Made by a program: the position numbers and the translations under genes. Shown piece after piece: positions 1 to 39,899 of a stretch of DNA of 39,899 nucleotides (position 1 is its first letter; the number at the start of each line of letters is the position of its first letter). Source of the stretch: a virus; UHGV virus genome UHGV-0045955; one strand, 5' to 3'. The notes under the pieces are model-generated. The model saw only the letters and a list, made by a program, of their open reading frames with translations. It ran no database searches and was not told the DNA's origin.

Positions 1-22
1 TGTGTACCAAATTGTGTACCAA
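1..22. repeat. Tandem direct repeat TGTGTACCAA-AT-TGTGTACCAA upstream of the integrase gene
   Basis: Two identical 10-nt copies at 1-10 and 13-22, read directly from the sequence. Confidence 0.5.
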
Positions 23-49
23 TTTTGACGATGACGAACAGGTATTAGG

Positions 50-1258
50 ATGGCACTCAACGATACAAAGCTGCGACGTATATCCGGAAAAGCATATGAG
101 GGACCTGAGGAGATAGCTGACGGAGGCGGACTTTCTGTCAGGATCAGCCCGAAGGGACTTATCACCTTTCAATACCGCTATCGTTTCAATGGAAAACCCG
201 CCAGGTTAAAGCTCGGAACGTACGGGAAGATGTCGCTTAAGGAAGCTCGCGATGCATTGGAAGAGTGTAAAGGGTGGTTGGAGAAGGGTAAAGACCCAGC
301 CATGCAAAGGAAGAAAGCCAAAGATATTGCATCAAGTTCCCCAAGCATCAGTACCCTAGTTGACGAGTGGTTTGATACTCCTTCAGTAAAAGAGATGGTG
401 AAGTACGAATACTGGAAGCGGATGCTGAAACTTCACATCACCGACAATTACGGTAAGCTGATTGCAGATGAAATGAGTCCTGTAGAGTGGGAGCAAATAT
501 TCATTCGCATAACAAAAGGTGGGTCACCCGTACAGGCGGGAAATGTACTGGTGAAGATGAAGCAAGTGATCCGCTATGCGTTACGCAGAAAACGCATAAC
601 ATCAAATGCACTGATGCTTCTTGAGATTAATGATATCGGCAGTAGACCTAATAATGGCGAACGTTTTCTTAACGATGTTGAGATAGGCGCATTCTGGAAT
701 GCCATCGACAAAACGAAAATGTCGTGGCAAAACAAAATGTTTATTCGAATTGTTGCGTTAACTGGTTGTCGTGGTGTTGAATTGCGGTTGGCTAAGAAGA
801 CTGATTTTGATCTGAAGTCTAGAGAATGGACTATACCGAAAGAGAACTCAAAAACGCGTAAGCGATTTGTTCGCGGTATTTCAAAACTCGCAGCAGATTA
901 TTTGCAGCAGGTATTTGATCTATACCCTGATCTGTCAATCGTATTTCCTCCGGCTAAGTTACAGGAAAATCGCCCAATGTCTGCCAGCACCCTAATTTCT
1001 ATTGCAGAACAGGTAGAAGATGTTATGGGGGGCGAGCACTGGTCATTGCACGATCTGCGCAGAACGTGCAAAACAAAAATGGCTGAACTTGGAGTAGCAC
1101 CTCATGTTTCGGAGAAAATTCTCGGGCATAAACTCACGGGGATGCTGGCTGTTTATGACCAGTATGACTACATCCCCGAGCAGCAGGACGCAGCAGAATT
1201 ATGGGCTAAGAAAATTCAAGAGTGTTCGGAAATCAATCCTTTATCTTTGCAAAACTGA
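50..1258 (+). CDS. int: Tyrosine integrase, P4-like family (N-terminal arm-binding domain, C-terminal catalytic domain)
   Basis: 402-aa ORF; N-terminal region resembles the DUF4102-type arm domain; C-terminal HDLRRT, LGH and Y motifs typical of tyrosine recombinases. Confidence 0.9.
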   Translation: MALNDTKLRRISGKAYEGPEEIADGGGLSVRISPKGLITFQYRYRFNGKPARLKLGTYGKMSLKEARDALEECKGWLEKGKDPAMQRKKAKDIASSSPSISTLVDEWFDTPSVKEMVKYEYWKRMLKLHITDNYGKLIADEMSPVEWEQIFIRITKGGSPVQAGNVLVKMKQVIRYALRRKRITSNALMLLEINDIGSRPNNGERFLNDVEIGAFWNAIDKTKMSWQNKMFIRIVALTGCRGVELRLAKKTDFDLKSREWTIPKENSKTRKRFVRGISKLAADYLQQVFDLYPDLSIVFPPAKLQENRPMSASTLISIAEQVEDVMGGEHWSLHDLRRTCKTKMAELGVAPHVSEKILGHKLTGMLAVYDQYDYIPEQQDAAELWAKKIQECSEINPLSLQN

Positions 1259-8065: not shown

Positions 8066-8167
8066 NNNNNNNNNNNNNNNNNNNNNNNNNNNNNNNNNNN
8101 NNNNNNNNNNNNNNNNNNNNNNNNNNNNNNNNNNNNNNNNNNNNNNNNNNNNNNNNNNNNNNNNNNN
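8066..8167. other. Run of N (assembly gap) flanked by an identical 14-nt sequence CCCCTTATGGAAGG
   Basis: N-run read directly; the flank duplication suggests two overlapping contig ends joined with N rather than missing biology. Confidence 0.95.
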
Positions 8168-9138: not shown

Positions 9139-9196
9139 ATACAACGCGCATCAGTTGGTGCGTATAACTTCTTATTTGTTAAGGAAATACTTACAT

Positions 9197-9475
9197 ATGC
9201 AACTTACAAGTACTCGCAAGAAAGCGAATGCAATTACAAGCAACATCCTAAATCGAATTGCTGTACGTGGTCAGCGAAAGGTTGCCGACGCGTTAGGGAT
9301 TAATGAATCGCAAATTTCGCGATGGAAAGACAGCTTTATCCCAAAGATGGCCATGCTTCTGGCTGTGCTGGAGTGGGGTGTTGAAGACGAGGAATTGGCG
9401 GAACTGGCAAAGAAAGTAGCCAAGGTGCTGACAAAAGAAAAGCCTCAAGACTGCTGCAACAGTTTTGAGGCCTGA
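9197..9475 (+). CDS. c1: C1 (lambda CII-like) transcriptional activator
   Basis: 92-aa ORF from ATG with AAGGAAA RBS; matches P22 C1 by recall (MQLTSTRKKANAITSNILNRIA...). Confidence 0.8.
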   Translation: MQLTSTRKKANAITSNILNRIAVRGQRKVADALGINESQISRWKDSFIPKMAMLLAVLEWGVEDEELAELAKKVAKVLTKEKPQDCCNSFEA

Positions 9476-9509
9476 TGTAGAAAGACTGGATCAATCCACA
9501 GGAGTAATT

Positions 9510-9671
9510 ATGACAAAACGTCGTAAGAAATACCAGGAAAAAGAAGAGATTCGACACCCTGATTCACCTGAGGGATTAGTGGTAGCCGCAGCAAATAACA
9601 GGGCGTTCGCAGAGCGCCTTGTTGGTGTTTACAGACTAGCCAAAGCAGGAGTGAAACATGGGCGTCGTTAA
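9510..9671 (+). CDS. Small hypothetical protein (53 aa)
   Basis: ATG preceded by AGGAG; overlaps the start of the replication initiator gene. Confidence 0.4.
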   Translation: MTKRRKKYQEKEEIRHPDSPEGLVVAAANNRAFAERLVGVYRLAKAGVKHGRR

Positions 9672-10583
9672 GTTAGCTGATTACAGGCCTCAACTTGAGG
9701 TCGTGGAGCATCGCGTGGCAGATACCGAAGATGGTTTCATGCGCGTTGCTAACGAGATTACCGACAGTCTGCTGATGGCTGATTTAACCGTCCGGCAGTT
9801 GAAGGTGATGCTCGCTATCATGCGCAAGACATACGGATTCAATAAGCCGATGGATCGACTCACAAACACGCAGATAGCAGCCATGACAGGTATTCATCAC
9901 ACTCATGTTTGCGCTGCCAAGCGCCAGCTTATTGAGCGTAAATTCCTCATTGCTGATGGCGTGAAAATCGGAGTGAACAAGGTGGTTTCGCAGTGGATTA
10001 GCCAGGACAGCTTAACATTAGCTAAAACAGCTAATAAAACATTAGCCAAGTCAGCTAATGGGTATAAGCCAAGTCAGCTAAACACAAAAGACAATATACA
10101 AAAGACAATAAATACAAATACCCCCTTACCCCCCCCCCCCCNNNNNNNNNNNNNNNNNNNNNNNNNNNNNNNNNNNNNNNNNNNNNNNNNNNNNNNNNNN
10201 NNNNNNNNNNNNNNNNNNNNNNNNNNNNNNNNNNNNNNNNNNNNNNNNNNNNNNNNNNNNTAAACCCTGAACGTCGCAAGGCAGAACGAATCGACTACGA
10301 ATCCTTCCTGAACGCCTACAACACCGAAGTCGGTGACAGACTTCCACACGCTGTTGCGGTCAACGAGAAACGCAAACGCCGCCTGAAAAAAATCATCCCG
10401 CAACTGAAAACGCCAAACGTGGACGGTTTCAGGGCGTATGTCAGGGCGTTTGTGCATCAGGCCAAGCCGTTTTACTTCGGAGACAACGACACGGGCTGGA
10501 CGGCTGATTTTGATTACCTGCTGAGAGAAGATTCGTTAACGGGAGTTCGTGAAGGGAAGTTTGCAGACAGGGGAATTGCATGA
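9658..10583 (+). CDS. Replication initiator (lambda O / P22 gene-18 type), interrupted by an N-run
   Basis: N-terminal HTH domain typical of the phage O N-terminal family; the C-terminal part resumes after the gap and ends with a TGA overlapping the helicase ATG. Confidence 0.75.
10019..10125. repeat. Iteron-like direct repeats inside the initiator gene (candidate ori)
   Basis: AGCCAAGTCAGCTAA twice (10044-10058, 10067-10081), ACAAAAGACAATA twice (10084-10096, 10098-10110), and several AGCTAA motifs. Confidence 0.5.
10142..10260. other. Run of N (assembly gap) inside the initiator gene, preceded by a poly-C run
   Basis: Read directly. Confidence 0.95.
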
Positions 10584-33730: not shown

Positions 33731-33847
33731 GCCAACCTCCTTAGTTTTGAGCAGGATACCATGAAAAAAGTAAACATCTTTTGCCTACTTCACATTTGAA
33801 TGGTTTGTCATTAGGATGTTTCCGGTTTTTTAAATATGGAAATTGAT

Positions 33848-34267
33848 ATGAAGAGGATTATTGGCGTCGTTGCTGGCGCTATATTGTTATCTGGGTGCGC
33901 AACTATTGTTGGTGACGAAACGCAGCTTGTGCAAGTGAACAGCAATCCTTCCGGTGCGAGCTTTAAGGTAAAAGACGAATCAGGCGTGATTGTTGCGCAA
34001 GGTAAGACCCCACAAGGAGTAACTCTTGCCAAGTCAGATGGTAGTTATTTTGGCAAAAAGAGCTACCAGATCACTATGGAAAAGGATGGGTACGAACCAG
34101 TTACCCTGCCAATCAAAGCCAATGCTAATGGCTGGTATATTGGTGGAAACCTTGTGTTTGGTGGGTTAATTGGTTGGCTTGCTGTAGATCCTTTTAATGG
34201 TGGGATGTATACCTTGAAGCCAAAAGAGGCAAACGCATCTCTTATACCATCAACAAAGCAAGACTAA
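33848..34267 (+). CDS. Lipoprotein with PEGA-like beta domain and Gly-rich hydrophobic C-terminal segment
   Basis: Signal MKRIIGVVAGAILLSGC with lipobox LSGC; region NSNPSGASFKV...GKTP...KDGYEPVTLPIKA resembles a PEGA domain; C-terminal WYIGGNLVFGGLIGWLAV. Confidence 0.6.
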   Translation: MKRIIGVVAGAILLSGCATIVGDETQLVQVNSNPSGASFKVKDESGVIVAQGKTPQGVTLAKSDGSYFGKKSYQITMEKDGYEPVTLPIKANANGWYIGGNLVFGGLIGWLAVDPFNGGMYTLKPKEANASLIPSTKQD

Positions 34268-35780: not shown

Positions 35781-35896
35781 NNNNNNNNNNNNNNNNNNNN
35801 NNNNNNNNNNNNNNNNNNNNNNNNNNNNNNNNNNNNNNNNNNNNNNNNNNNNNNNNNNNNNNNNNNNNNNNNNNNNNNNNNNNNNNNNNNNNNNNN
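35781..35896. other. Run of N (assembly gap) followed by G9T8 homopolymers
   Basis: Read directly. Confidence 0.95.
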
Positions 35897-36241: not shown

Positions 36242-38983
36242 ATGACTAATATGCCTGATATAACTCCAAATGTTGTAATTGGGATGCCTTCGCAACTCTT
36301 CACTATGGCTCGTTCTTTTAAAGCCGTAGCTAATGGCAAAATTTATATCGGTAAAATTGACACTGACCCTGTAAATCCTGAAAACCAGATTCAGGTTTAT
36401 GTAGAGAATGAAGAAGGTTCTCACGTTCCTGTTTCGCAACCAATCGTTATCAATGCTGCTGGATATCCTGTATATAACGGACAGATTGCCAAATTCGTTA
36501 CTGTGAAAGGACACTCTATGGCTGTGTACGATGCTTATGGTACGCAGCAGTTCTATTTTCCGAATGTGCTGAAGTATGACCCGGATCAGTTACGGCAGCA
36601 ATTAGAAGATCCTGATGGTGCTAAAAAATACCCTGAATTACAGATTGCACGATGGCGGGATGATAAAGACGTTCGCGGGTGGGGGGCGGATGACTCTGCG
36701 AATAGAGATTCAACACAGGCTTTTCTTGACGCCGCATCTAGCGCAGGAAATAGTGGTTTGGTTCATGTGCCTTCTGGTGAGTTTATAGTTGATGCATCGA
36801 AAATAGATATTTCACGCTTCTCCGGTGATGGTGTTCTAATCAGTAATGGTGTTCGCATTTCTGTTAATCCGCCGATGCAAAGTTTCTCCATTGGACAAAG
36901 AAAACTTGCGACCCTGAATTTTGGTGATGATATCAATGCGCCAACTATATATGCGAATGCACAAAATGCATTGCAGGGAATAGCTTGTGTAAGGCATGAA
37001 GGTATTGAGAAGGTTTTTATCACTCAACAGGTTGGAGGTTCTAACTGGGGAACGGACACCCTCACAAGGATCAGTGAGTGGCACTATACAAGCGATGGTT
37101 CAACTCTTTATGTTGTGACATTTACAGAGCCATTGCCTCTTGGTCACGGTTCAGATCTTTCTGCCACAATAGAGAACGGTGAACTATATCTGTTTACAAC
37201 AACAATTGCTGAGACTGGTTCCTCTCTAGGAGGGAAGGGGTATTCAAAGACAAAATGGAAAGGGGCATCAACATCTGCTGAAGATATAACTCATTACCGA
37301 GTATTTGGTGAGCCGGGTGATAATAATCTGATTAACCTTGCGCAGCGGGCAAGTATTTGTGTATCTAATGATGGGCGATATGTCATATTAATTGCGACAT
37401 CAAACGCTGGGACTGGCCGCTTTTTATACGTATATGATCGCAAAGAAGTGGAATCTTCTTCTAACCCAATGAAAGTTAGACCGATTAATGGTCCTGTTCC
37501 ACTTGTCCGTGGTAAAGGTCAGTATGGTGCAACACTTCAGGGTATTACATCAGATAGCAGATATATTTACACAATTTGGGGTGGCGTTCCTGCAAGATGC
37601 GTAAGGACAGTACAGATTTATGATATGGGTGGTACGCTAATACGTTCATTTCCTGTATCACTTGCCGCCTCACTTTATACAGAGACTCAGTTAAATGGTT
37701 CTGACTCTAAAATCGGAGTTCCGGTTAGCTTTGAGCCTGAAGGGCTGGCAATAAGAGGTGATGAACTTGTCTGTGGTGCTATGGATGTATGGAAAAGCGC
37801 AGGGGATGTTGTAAGCCATCGTGGTAAAAATTGGGTAAGTATTGTTACTGGTGATAACAAGGGAAATCTTCCGACAAACAGGTCTTATTGGTTAAAAACA
37901 TCGCTTGCAGCGACAAGTGGTGAATGGGATTCAGGCGCAACATATAAATCAGGTGATTATACTCGCAGAAATAAGCATCTGTTTGGAATAGCAAACCTGT
38001 CTGATATTCTTGGCAACCATCCAGTGCATGGTGCAGAATCCGATCCGTATACCGGAACCGCGCATCAATATTATGCTGGAACTGATATCGCCTTTAACCG
38101 TGAGCACGGTTCATTTACTATTGCGATATTTGACGAAGCCATTGGAGAGTATACCAAATCCCTCGAGTTGAATTATGGAAATAACCTTAACCTGTTTGAT
38201 ACAGATTACGGACATGACAATAATTCATGGGTAAGTACGAAAGCAGTATTCGACTCAAACTTTCGAGGTATGCAGTTCCGTTCTAAAGATGGGAATACTG
38301 CGGGTGGTGCTTATATTGATATCCATGCTGCTGATTGTCCATCTGCGGCTGGTGAGTTGATACTTGCCTCTACAGATGGAGGTGTCGTCAGACTTAAGCA
38401 GGGGAATGTAACAGTATTTTCTGCGACTAAAGATACTACATCGACATGGGCGACGACGACATTAAGGCCAACAACTGATAACCAGGTATCACTTGGAAGG
38501 TCCGTTAACCGCTTTTCTCAGGTCTACGCAGGGACTGCAACTATAAATACATCTGATGCAACAGAGAAAACGGAAGTCAGAACTCTTTCCGATAAAGAGC
38601 AGGCGGTTGGGTTAGCTCTTGTTGATGAAATTGGTTTTTATCAATGGCTTGATAGTGTAAAAAATAAGGGAGCTGATGCCAGACTTCATGCCGGACTTAC
38701 GGTGCAACGGGCAATGGAAATATTCAGAGAGAATGGACTTGATCCATTTAAATACGGAGCGATCTGCTATGACAGATGGGATGCATATACAGATACAGAT
38801 CCAGCTGTTTATGATGATGAAGGTAACCTTGTTCGTGAGGCTATAACTATTACGCATGAAGCAGGAGAACGCTATGCATTCAGAAATGATGAATTACAGT
38901 ATCTAATGATTGCTGCATTAGGTATACGTCAGAAAAATATTATAAAGAGGATTGAAGAACTGGAAAATAAGCTTGCAAATTAA
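36242..38983 (+). CDS. 9: Tailspike: P22/HK620-type head-binding domain, central receptor-binding (probable glycanase) domain, C-terminal intramolecular chaperone domain
   Basis: N-terminus [38 protein letters not shown]... matches the podovirus tailspike head-binding domain; C-terminal 150 aa ([20 protein letters not shown]...) resemble the S74 self-cleaving chaperone; start set at ATG 36242 rather than the ORF-track start. Confidence 0.9.
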
Positions 38984-39066
38984 CTATTTTACTGACACCT
39001 TAAGTCTCAATATTACCAATTGAAGTCTATGTTTTTTGGGTGTTTTAGTAATTTGTTATAGATAAA

Positions 39067-39103
39067 TGTCACTCCTTAAAGATATCGCATTCTAGGAGTG
39101 ACA
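39067..39103. repeat. 9-bp inverted repeat (TGTCACTCC ... GGAGTGACA) between the convergent tailspike and acetyltransferase genes
   Basis: Arms at 39067-39075 and 39095-39103 with a 19-nt loop. Confidence 0.4.
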
Positions 39104-39138
39104 TGTGATTTACTTGTCGTTCAATATATGGTGTGTTT

Positions 39139-39849
39139 TTATTGTTTTTCTTTTGTTAGGTTCCAATATTCACTTGTGGTTTTTATGGAGTCCTTATTAG
39201 GCTTTACATAAGGTTTATGTATGGAGAGATGAGGTCTTTCCCAGGCAATGTCTTTTTTTATTACTCTTGCTGGAACTCCTGCTGCAATAGAGTTATTTGG
39301 GACGTGTCCTTTAACAACAGCTGCATAGCCAATAACACTACCACTTTCGATTTCTGCACCACCAAGTATTGCCGCTCGGCGGCCAACCCAGACATGACTT
39401 CCAATATAAATAGATTTTGGCATATTTATACGTTCACCTGTTACTACACTAAAAATAGGGTGGGAGTCATCAGTTTTAACTTCATTTCCACTTGAAAACA
39501 TGCAGTCATCGCCAATAATTATGCTTGAGTTTTCTACAGCAGAAATCATACCTTTACCAGTGCAAGTGAAATCAGAGCCTATTTTTATGGAGGAATTCTC
39601 ACCCACTCTTATATGGGCTTGTATACCTTTGTTTGCGATATGGCATGGGCCAATTTCAAAATACCCATTGTTGCAGTCAAAATATATCTCAAAATATTTT
39701 AATGATGCATCTTTATGAATGATAAGTTTATTATTAGATCCTCTAAACTGAATTAGTTTGACGTCACAACTACCTTCGTACTGGATCTCATTACCCATTT
39801 CATCAGAATACTTCTCTGCTTTTGTTAAAACAACTTTTCTAATTTTCAT
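39139..39849 (-). CDS. Hexapeptide-repeat (left-handed beta-helix) acetyltransferase, probable polysaccharide O-acetyltransferase moron
   Basis: 236-aa product from ATG at 39849; repeated [LIV]-G-x4 hexapeptide pattern (IGDDCMF, IGSHVWVGRRAAILGG, IGYAAVV); visibly AT-rich relative to the structural genes. Confidence 0.8.
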   Translation of the reverse strand: MKIRKVVLTKAEKYSDEMGNEIQYEGSCDVKLIQFRGSNNKLIIHKDASLKYFEIYFDCNNGYFEIGPCHIANKGIQAHIRVGENSSIKIGSDFTCTGKGMISAVENSSIIIGDDCMFSSGNEVKTDDSHPIFSVVTGERINMPKSIYIGSHVWVGRRAAILGGAEIESGSVIGYAAVVKGHVPNNSIAAGVPARVIKKDIAWERPHLSIHKPYVKPNKDSIKTTSEYWNLTKEKQ

Positions 39850-39899
39850 ATTATCAATAAGTAAAAAATGCAAATGAAAATTTCAAATTTACATTATCT

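Follow-up and report, generated by a model that had tools for sequence, protein, structure and literature searches.

A putative NeuO/OatWY-type O-acetyltransferase at the end of a P22-like prophage of Escherichia coli, with a teichoic-acid-like group-2 capsule as candidate acceptor

Introduction

To our knowledge, phage-encoded O-acetylation of a capsule in Escherichia coli is known from a single case, that of NeuO, which is encoded by the prophage CUS-3 and acts on the K1 capsule. Here, we analyze a gene of comparable position in the virus genome UHGV-0045955, a stretch of 39,899 nucleotides (hereafter, the window) that covers nearly the whole of a P22-like prophage of E. coli. An earlier note on this DNA, made from the letters alone, had described the product of the gene (39139-39849, minus strand) as an acetyltransferase of the left-handed beta-helix (LbH) type and had proposed, by parallel with CUS-3, that it modifies the receptor of the very phage that carries it.

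NeuO (PDB 3jqy) modifies polysialic acid chains with at least 14 residues (PMC3046976), and acetylation by this enzyme protects K1 strains from lytic K1 phage (PMC13001214). In CUS-3, neuO lies downstream of, and in the same direction as, the gene for an endosialidase tailspike, the capsule of the host is one of sialic acid, and the gene contains 19 copies of AAGACTC that encode RLKTQDS heptads. The second system to be considered is OatWY of Neisseria meningitidis W/Y (PDB 2wlc), which has the same catalytic residues and likewise modifies a long anionic capsule polymer but is encoded chromosomally, in the capsule locus, and has a sialic-acid heteropolymer as its substrate. A third set comprises the Oac acetylases of Sf6 and Sf101 and gtrABC of P22, through which a phage modifies the glycan that its own tailspike recognizes; these act on O antigen and, as members of the Acyl_transf_3 family or the Gtr system, are integral to the membrane. 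More generally, the slot between the tailspike and attP/int houses surface-glycan modification genes in P22-like phages. Finally, genes labelled 'acyltransferase' in Actinomycetota and Betaproteobacteria (Pusillimonas, Acidovorax, CGII-56, Arthrobacter) are encoded in cis within biosynthetic loci rather than in prophages, and their functions are those of the annotation only.

The gene studied here resembles each of these systems in part. NeuO is its best match in both sequence and fold, with the equivalents of the catalytic and Arg residues conserved; both genes are located on a P22-like prophage, between the tailspike and att/int, and the hosts of both have a group-2, ABC-transporter capsule that is assembled in the cytoplasm. 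It differs from neuO in containing neither a variable-number tandem repeat (VNTR) nor a heptad domain, in being convergent with its tailspike gene, and in being accompanied by neither an endosialidase nor sialic-acid capsule genes. Thus, the parallel with CUS-3 holds for the tailspike-side slot in a P22-like prophage but not for the orientation or for the type of tailspike. OatWY is the second-best match in sequence and fold, although its N-terminal region aligns poorly. Oac and Gtr share the slot but are membrane-bound, whereas the present enzyme appears to be a soluble LbH protein, which fits a polymer built in the cytoplasm. Judged from sequence, the gene is best described as encoding a putative capsule O-acetyltransferase of the NeuO family that is carried by a prophage and would act on a capsule of another, chemically uncharacterised type.

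Results

Assignment to the NeuO/OatWY subfamily

The open reading frame (ORF) is intact, starts with ATG and encodes 236 amino acids; at identical coordinates (positions 9156-9866 of locus L001), RefSeq lists an 'acyltransferase' (WP_001313877.1). The sole Pfam family found in the protein was Hexapep (PF00132; 29.4 bits against a cut-off of 27), with no Acyl_transf_3 domain. The AlphaFold model, for which an alignment of 15 homologues was used, is a left-handed beta-helix of short beta-strands (pLDDT 91.2), the fold that had been read from the sequence earlier.

Among all solved structures, the best sequence matches were NeuO of CUS-3 (E = 2.7e-32, residues 32-206) and then OatWY (5e-25), with maltose and galactoside acetyltransferases at about 1e-13 and Vat and CatB at 1e-5 or worse, so that NeuO and OatWY lead the other LbH enzymes by some ten or more orders of magnitude. 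Comparison of the model with known structures using Foldseek gave the same order, namely, NeuO 3jqy (1e-11, TM 0.66-0.73), OatWY 2wle (1.6e-10) and, for the next structure, 1.4e-5, all top matches being LbH enzymes. Thus, in both sequence and fold the enzyme is closer to NeuO and OatWY than to any other solved LbH enzyme. A catalytic His on a protruding loop together with a conserved Trp is the mark of LbH enzymes that use acetyl-CoA. In the present protein, H130, W154, R157 and R205, which are invariant across the 15-homologue alignment, align with His147, Trp171, Arg174 and Arg222 of NeuO, the first two of which are catalytic (PMC3046976) and the Arg pair structural.

None of the NCBIfam equivalog cut-offs examined was reached: the scores were 56 vs 314 for maltose acetyltransferase, 51 vs 347 for galactoside acetyltransferase, 54 vs 243 for WbbJ, and 35 vs 192 and 20 vs 326 for WcaF, whereas the antibiotic acetyltransferases (Vat, CatB, ApmA) gave at best 20-37 bits against cut-offs of 300-550, with matches in the C-terminal repeats only. 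In a direct comparison, the protein is 38.5% identical to NeuO across 174 residues (74% of its length), and a C-terminal tail that is conserved in the family, DIAWERPHLS..KPY.KPD..YWNLT, is absent from NeuO. The isoelectric points of family members range from 5.9 to 9.3 and are uninformative with regard to a polyanionic acceptor.

We therefore assign the gene, with high confidence, as a moron for an O-acetyltransferase of the NeuO/OatWY type; the alignments and the model predict an acetyl-CoA-dependent enzyme that belongs to this subfamily without being a NeuO orthologue. The earlier suggestion of a NeuO-like protein is borne out to this extent, the best homologue being neither an antibiotic nor a housekeeping acetyltransferase and WcaF and WbbJ lying far below their cut-offs.

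Position and composition of the gene

The prophage is P22-like in its head-binding tailspike, mnt/arc/ant and gp16. At its end, the acetyltransferase gene has a GC content of 36.1%, compared with 42.4% for the tailspike gene and 47.5% for the rest of the prophage, and is convergent with the gene for the 910-aa tailspike, with the stop codons 155 bp apart. The hairpin between the stops (Table 1) has a folding energy of -20.0 kcal/mol on the plus strand (z -3.9) and -17.2 kcal/mol on the minus strand (z -3.55); it was not called in a consensus terminator scan. A 25-bp att repeat (one mismatch) lies between the gene and host thrS, 245 bp from the acetyltransferase ATG and 104 bp before the thrS start. 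The acetyltransferase gene is therefore the last gene before attR, and in the circular phage genome it lies between the tailspike and attP/int. The orientation, marked AT-richness and prophage-end position given in the earlier note all stand, and the att site that it had suggested looking for in the flanking host sequence is present.

Co-occurrence with a group-2 capsule locus

Searches of 5426 complete E. coli genomes by megablast and sensitive blastn detected the acetyltransferase gene in exactly five, MS 16-3, E4, TUM10008, EC24 and GMF065, and the tailspike core in the identical five. These lysogens come from humans, poultry and a pig, in the USA, Japan and China, and represent at least two host backgrounds that are 1.5% apart in thrS-pheT, between which the acetyltransferase-tailspike pair is 99.3-100% identical. 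In a wider protein collection, the exact acetyltransferase protein was found on 358 contigs (717 sample blocks); on all 24 contigs that were read, the gene lies between thrS and this tailspike, with varying adjacent immI genes.

MS 16-3 has an intact kps locus, in which the serotype-specific region 2 consists of four genes (Table 1), with no acetyltransferase of its own and no neu genes. The 5-kb region 2 is present at full length and at least 99.9% identity in exactly five of the 5426 genomes, and these are the five lysogens. It is the capsule locus, and not the O antigen, that explains the distribution of the gene.

The gene lengths and domain coordinates of this region 2 match those of type K117 in the kTYPr scheme (PMC13171606 supplement), which is one of the types K104-K163, i.e. 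previously unknown capsule types without a determined structure (2026 kTYPr study, PMC13171606). A search of the kTYPr supplement for the accessions of the lysogens found none, so that gene lengths and domain coordinates are the basis for assigning it to K117. PDB sequence searches with the 701-aa and 369-aa region 2 proteins gave only a weak KpsC-like match. The K2 capsule, for which the gene could have explained the difference between K2a and K2ab, was considered and rejected, the K2 region 2 genes of CFT073 being different from those of the lysogens; the K2a/K2ab difference itself has been attributed to an in-locus gene (PMC13171606).

A sister kps region 2, which is probably kTYPr K122, occurs in SE15 (L108 5073-12727) and SCU-102. 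Its cytidylyltransferase is the same and its 369-aa TagF-like protein identical; a protein of 696 aa is also encoded, and the family-8 glycosyltransferase (GT8) is replaced by a TPR protein and a glycosyltransferase of 555 aa. Neither the prophage nor the acetyltransferase gene was found in SE15 or SCU-102.

Homologues outside E. coli

Because the co-occurrence might stem from the specificity of the tailspike, homologues elsewhere were examined. The nearest non-E. coli proteins are those of Betaproteobacteria (55-64% identity). The gene for the Pusillimonas homologue (61%) belongs to a kps-like locus, where it has TagF-like and TagD-like genes as neighbours. In Acidovorax (L016, 59%) and in Alcaligenaceae CGII-56 (L018, 55%), the homologue directly follows three homologues of K117 region 2 genes in the same order, with identities, respectively, of 72% and 46% for the cytidylyltransferase, 44% and 50% for the 369-aa TagF-like protein, and 38% and 35%, over about 547 residues, for the 701-aa protein. 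Thus, in these two genomes the acetyltransferase gene is a cis-encoded part of a K117-like cassette.

For a broader comparison, 80 homologue loci were collected, one genome per species and mostly from Actinomycetota. Greedy ORF calling in these high-GC genomes recovered the acetyltransferase in 53 of the 80 loci, and six-frame segments with iterated hidden Markov models were used instead. Unbiased clustering of the neighbours identified TagF-like proteins and ABC-transporter pairs as the commonest. With the iterated models, a TagF-like domain was detected within 10 kb in 48/80 loci and within 3 kb in 45/80, and the counts per 2-kb bin fell with rising distance (46, 24, 16, 11 and 6). Of the Pfam families found in the 146 nearest neighbouring ORFs, Glyphos_transf was the most frequent, and the 25 commonest Pfam families beside the homologues included none for sialic-acid synthesis. 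In Rahnella and Ewingella, the homologues belong to kps loci with Stealth hexose-phosphate transferases. The full-length homologues in teichoic-acid and capsule loci are 41-64% identical to the window protein and have the C-terminal tail in common. Judging by these neighbourhoods, the family appears to be tied to phosphodiester-linked polymers of the teichoic-acid type.

The pairing of acetyltransferase and tailspike was observed in three other prophage contexts. In a metagenomic prophage of the Alcaligenaceae type (L008/L009), the genes for the acetyltransferase (64% identity) and the tailspike (32% identity over 781 residues) are convergent. CGII-56 has two copies of the family: one ends the K117-like capsule cassette described above, and the other (L017) is a prophage copy directly after a tailspike 36% identical to that of the window. 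In a P22-like prophage of Rahnella rivi (L092), a 43%-identical acetyltransferase is convergent with a tailspike that shares the head-binding domain only.

Weaker homologues (27-35%) were noted in Enterococcus phage EH-TP1, Arthrobacter phage Peas and Rhizobium phages (PQ571301.1, MH834623.1, MN988490.1); in the Rhizobium phages the homologue is annotated next to attR, again a prophage-end position.

The tailspike

Sequence matches of the tailspike to known structures are confined to the N-terminal head-binding domain and the C-terminal stalk and chaperone. The central 600 residues gave no sequence match to the endosialidase catalytic domain, and only the C-terminal stalk and chaperone are common to this tailspike and endosialidase. 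The identity as an endosialidase was therefore rejected; the central region contains a propeller. In sequence, the central region is 36% identical to the tailspikes of coliphages Gally and vB_EcoP-683R2 and 27.6% identical to the neck appendage of Bacillus phage GA-1. The fold of the core (window 36608-38440) resembles that of Gp45 of Staphylococcus aureus phage phi11, the propeller-containing receptor-binding protein of a phage that adsorbs via GlcNAc-decorated wall teichoic acid (PMC4901313, PMC4876445). A Gp45-like core fits a teichoic-acid-like capsule as the receptor.

Several further observations concern the tailspike and its relatives. A core with a propeller is unusual as the receptor-binding domain of a P22-like coliphage. 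Related cores (34-37% identity) are found in OV696608.1 (Gally), ON470594.1 (vB_EcoP-683R2) and MH733496.1 (PGN829.1), and in the common E. coli prophage protein P0088 (262 member sequences). The receptors of Gally, vB_EcoP-683R2 and PGN829.1 might be other glycerol-phosphate capsules, e.g. K2, K24 or K122; no acetyltransferase homologue was detected in these three phage records. The tailspike cluster P0157 takes in proteins of Escherichia marmotae. EC24 (NZ_CP182191.1) has a second site matching the tailspike core, and in GMF065 (NZ_CM183923.1) the tailspike is annotated as a partial pseudogene, with the acetyltransferase gene intact.

The upstream region

Tandem Repeats Finder detected no tandem repeat in the acetyltransferase gene or its upstream region, and a search of the window for pairs of the AAGACTC heptad gave a sole near-match, at 9440, which is at chance level. 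The lack of a heptad VNTR at the gene, previously judged by inspection, is thus confirmed. A scan of IMG/VR for the upstream region gave no match.

Two poly-C tracts (poly-G on the plus strand) are located 77-83 and 120-126 nt upstream of the ATG, i.e. 27-33 and 70-76 bp beyond the end of the window (L001 9943-9949 and 9986-9992), and are the only length-variable sites among the 12 assemblies compared. At the proximal tract, 9/12 assemblies have C7, E4 and another assembly have C8, and GMF065 has C6; at the distal tract, all have C7 except GMF065, which again has C6. These differences could reflect slippage, inheritance within phage lineages or homopolymer sequencing error, and we do not count them as evidence of phase variation.

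Other features of the prophage

The coordinates of the features discussed here, together with the region 2 genes of MS 16-3, are given in Table 1. The att core (window 1-25; L001 10111-10135) precedes the thrS start codon by 104-128 bp, which presumably places it in the leader or promoter of thrS. At the phage end, immediately within attR, a perfect TATAAT follows a G7 tract and is directed towards thrS, and the phage may supply or modify thrS transcription. Between the DNA-transfer genes and mnt, a 143-aa ORF (33836-34267, plus strand) matches no Pfam family and shows a lipoprotein-type signal (…LLSGCAT…); a second moron may be present here, e.g. a superinfection-exclusion lipoprotein. Masked runs of N occupy 8066-8167, 10142-10260 and 35781-35896, the last of which, between ant and the tailspike gene, depresses the apparent GC content there.

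Table 1 Features of the prophage window and genes of the capsule region 2 of MS 16-3.
Feature	Position	Strand	Description
Acetyltransferase gene	39139..39849	-	236-aa putative left-handed beta-helix O-acetyltransferase, NeuO/OatWY subfamily; last gene of the prophage (moron)
Acetyltransferase 5' region	39850..39899	-	first 50 nt; remaining 195 nt to attR beyond the window; sequence read in L001 9867-10135
Tailspike gene	36251..38983	+	910 aa; P22-type head-binding domain aa 1-114, receptor-binding domain with beta-propeller ~aa 120-730, C-terminal Peptidase_S74 intramolecular chaperone
Hairpin	39066..39104	.	11-bp stem ATGTCACTCCT...AGGAGTGACAT between the convergent stops; candidate bidirectional terminator
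Tyrosine integrase gene	50..1258	+	Pfam Arm-DNA-bind_3 and Phage_integrase; opposite prophage end
attL core	1..25		TGTGTACCAaATTGTGTACCAATTT; repeat search, window start vs L001
attR	219-243 bp beyond window end		match to attL core
MS 16-3 region 2, gene 1			131-aa cytidylyltransferase (TagD-like)
MS 16-3 region 2, gene 2			369-aa TagF-like CDP-glycerol glycerophosphotransferase (Glyphos_transf)
MS 16-3 region 2, gene 3			701-aa protein; Capsule_synth domain at residues 493-637
MS 16-3 region 2, gene 4			family-8 glycosyltransferase (GT8)

Discussion

The proposed function is as follows. If expressed in the lysogen, the gene would yield a soluble cytoplasmic enzyme, trimeric by homology, with acetyl-CoA as the donor. 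Its acceptor would be the group-2 capsule polymer of the host, of a rare CDP-glycerol-dependent, teichoic-acid-like type (by architecture, kTYPr 'K117'). Polymerisation of group-2 capsules takes place in the cytoplasm, on a poly-Kdo glycolipid, and for the teichoic-acid-like kind uses glycerol-phosphate transferred from CDP-glycerol (PMC11666461), so that a soluble LbH enzyme can reach the nascent chain. The polyanionic chain would be acetylated at the cytoplasmic face before KpsMT export, as polysialic acid is by NeuO, either on a free glycerol hydroxyl or on a hexose added by the GT8 enzyme, between which the data do not distinguish, and the capsule would be converted to an O-acetylated variant. 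By analogy with NeuO and the Oac-type converters, recognition of an acetylated capsule may be weaker, both for the tailspike of this phage and for related capsule-specific phages and antibodies. The receptor of the phage is most likely the teichoic-acid-like group-2 capsule; that a capsule of the K117 type is also the acceptor of the enzyme we regard as probable, though by no means secure, and that acetylation blocks the phage may be suggested with less confidence, from the analogy. The earlier proposal of a phage-borne gene that modifies the phage's own receptor is thus supported as far as a NeuO-like moron without a VNTR is concerned, and acetylation of the receptor, with any effect on adsorption, would be expected by extension. 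Of the candidate receptors, the capsule is now favoured.

Several observations weigh against capsule acetylation as the function. The label K117 comes from matching architecture and not from sequence comparison with a reference. As the five lysogens fall into at least two backgrounds, the co-occurrence represents at least two independent lineages rather than five, and tailspike host range alone could produce co-occurrence in all five. Because identity to NeuO extends over only part of the protein and is below 40% there, acceptor specificity cannot be transferred from that enzyme. The GT8 gene of K117 is missing from the betaproteobacterial cassettes, so that the polymers may differ, and in 32 of the 80 homologue loci a TagF-like gene is absent from the surrounding 10 kb, so that the family is not exclusive to such loci. 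Upstream of the ATG, a Shine-Dalgarno-like GGAG was not visible, and a promoter scan found no promoter-like site on the strand of the gene.

Some of these points would also be accounted for if the enzyme acted on another molecule general to E. coli (colanic acid, enterobacterial common antigen, the lipopolysaccharide (LPS) core, a small sugar or a xenobiotic) and if the link to K117 were hitch-hiking with the host range of the tailspike. Co-occurrence alone cannot part the target of the acetyltransferase from the specificity of the tailspike, the maltose and galactoside acetyltransferases are detectable relatives, and two-fifths of the homologue loci have no TagF-like gene nearby. However, the closest non-phage homologues are linked in cis to a K117-like cassette, independently of any phage host range, and TagF-like genes are concentrated within 2 kb of the homologues. 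Furthermore, sequence and fold group the enzyme with two polymer-specific capsule enzymes, far from the small-molecule acetyltransferases, and all equivalog cut-offs were missed widely. On balance, we consider a pan-E. coli target unlikely.

The gene could also be inert cargo, i.e. a captured capsule-locus gene that stays silent in the prophage or leaves the host unaffected. Its low GC content suggests a recent foreign origin, and neither a promoter nor a ribosome-binding site nor a regulator was identified for it. Yet the identical 236-aa protein persists on the 358 contigs across phage variants that differ in the immI region and in tailspike sequence, its catalytic residues are intact, and the pairing with a tailspike recurs in unrelated prophages, all of which makes inertness a rather poor explanation.

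Classical O-serotype conversion, in which O-antigen repeat units would be acetylated in the cytoplasm by a WbbJ-like enzyme, has in its favour that P22-like phages usually target and modify the O antigen and that WbbJ is a weak NCBIfam match (54 bits). This score is far under the cut-off, and the homologues occur in ABC-transporter capsule and teichoic-acid loci, not in Wzx/Wzy clusters. The O antigen is an unlikely target because the O4 cluster of MS 16-3 and the O7 cluster of E4 are chemically unrelated. Full-length O4 wzy is present in 36 genomes, of which MS 16-3 is the sole lysogen, and O7 wzy is present in 97, E4 being the sole lysogen among the matches listed (60 of 97). Specificity for O4 was rejected separately, O4 wzy being found in one of the five lysogens. 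We give O-serotype conversion little credence; of the receptors left open by the earlier note, the O antigen can thus be set aside as improbable.

That the enzyme is a true NeuO orthologue acetylating sialic acid in a polysialic or other sialylated glycan is hardly credible: both closest characterised relatives are sialate O-acetyltransferases, and the position beside the tailspike recalls CUS-3, but the hosts have CDP-glycerol-type genes in kps region 2 and no neu genes, their O4 and O7 clusters are without sialic acid genes, sialic-acid synthesis does not figure among the common neighbour families, the catalytic region of the tailspike is unlike that of endosialidase, and identity to NeuO, which is devoid of the C-terminal tail, is low.

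Returning to capsule acetylation, a wider and more speculative extension may be offered, which we put forward tentatively and do not hold to be the likelier outcome. The enzyme would be the first phage-borne and first tractable E. coli member of a family of O-acetyltransferases of polyol-phosphate polymers that serves actinobacterial loci for wall teichoic acid as well as group-2 capsule loci of Gram-negative bacteria; K117 would be made an O-acetylated serovariant, the tailspike core would be shared with teichoic-acid-binding proteins of Gram-positive phages, and the poly-C tracts might switch expression, taking the role that the heptad VNTR has for NeuO.

The locus suggests that the strategy known from NeuO on K1 is also used for a chemically unrelated, teichoic-acid-like capsule, with a module of acetyltransferase and tailspike that recurs in prophages of E. 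coli, Alcaligenaceae and Rahnella. The difference between K18 and K22, and some other serotype differences, are probably set by acetyltransferase genes outside the capsule locus (PMC13171606), and the present gene would be a concrete example of such an off-locus capsule modifier. Capsule typing that is blind to prophages may accordingly miss antigenic variants relevant to vaccines and phage therapy. The analysis also points to a receptor-binding domain common to Gram-positive phages and a P22-like coliphage, and it provides a testable candidate function for a widespread 'acyltransferase' family, most members of which are found in Actinomycetota beside TagF-like genes.

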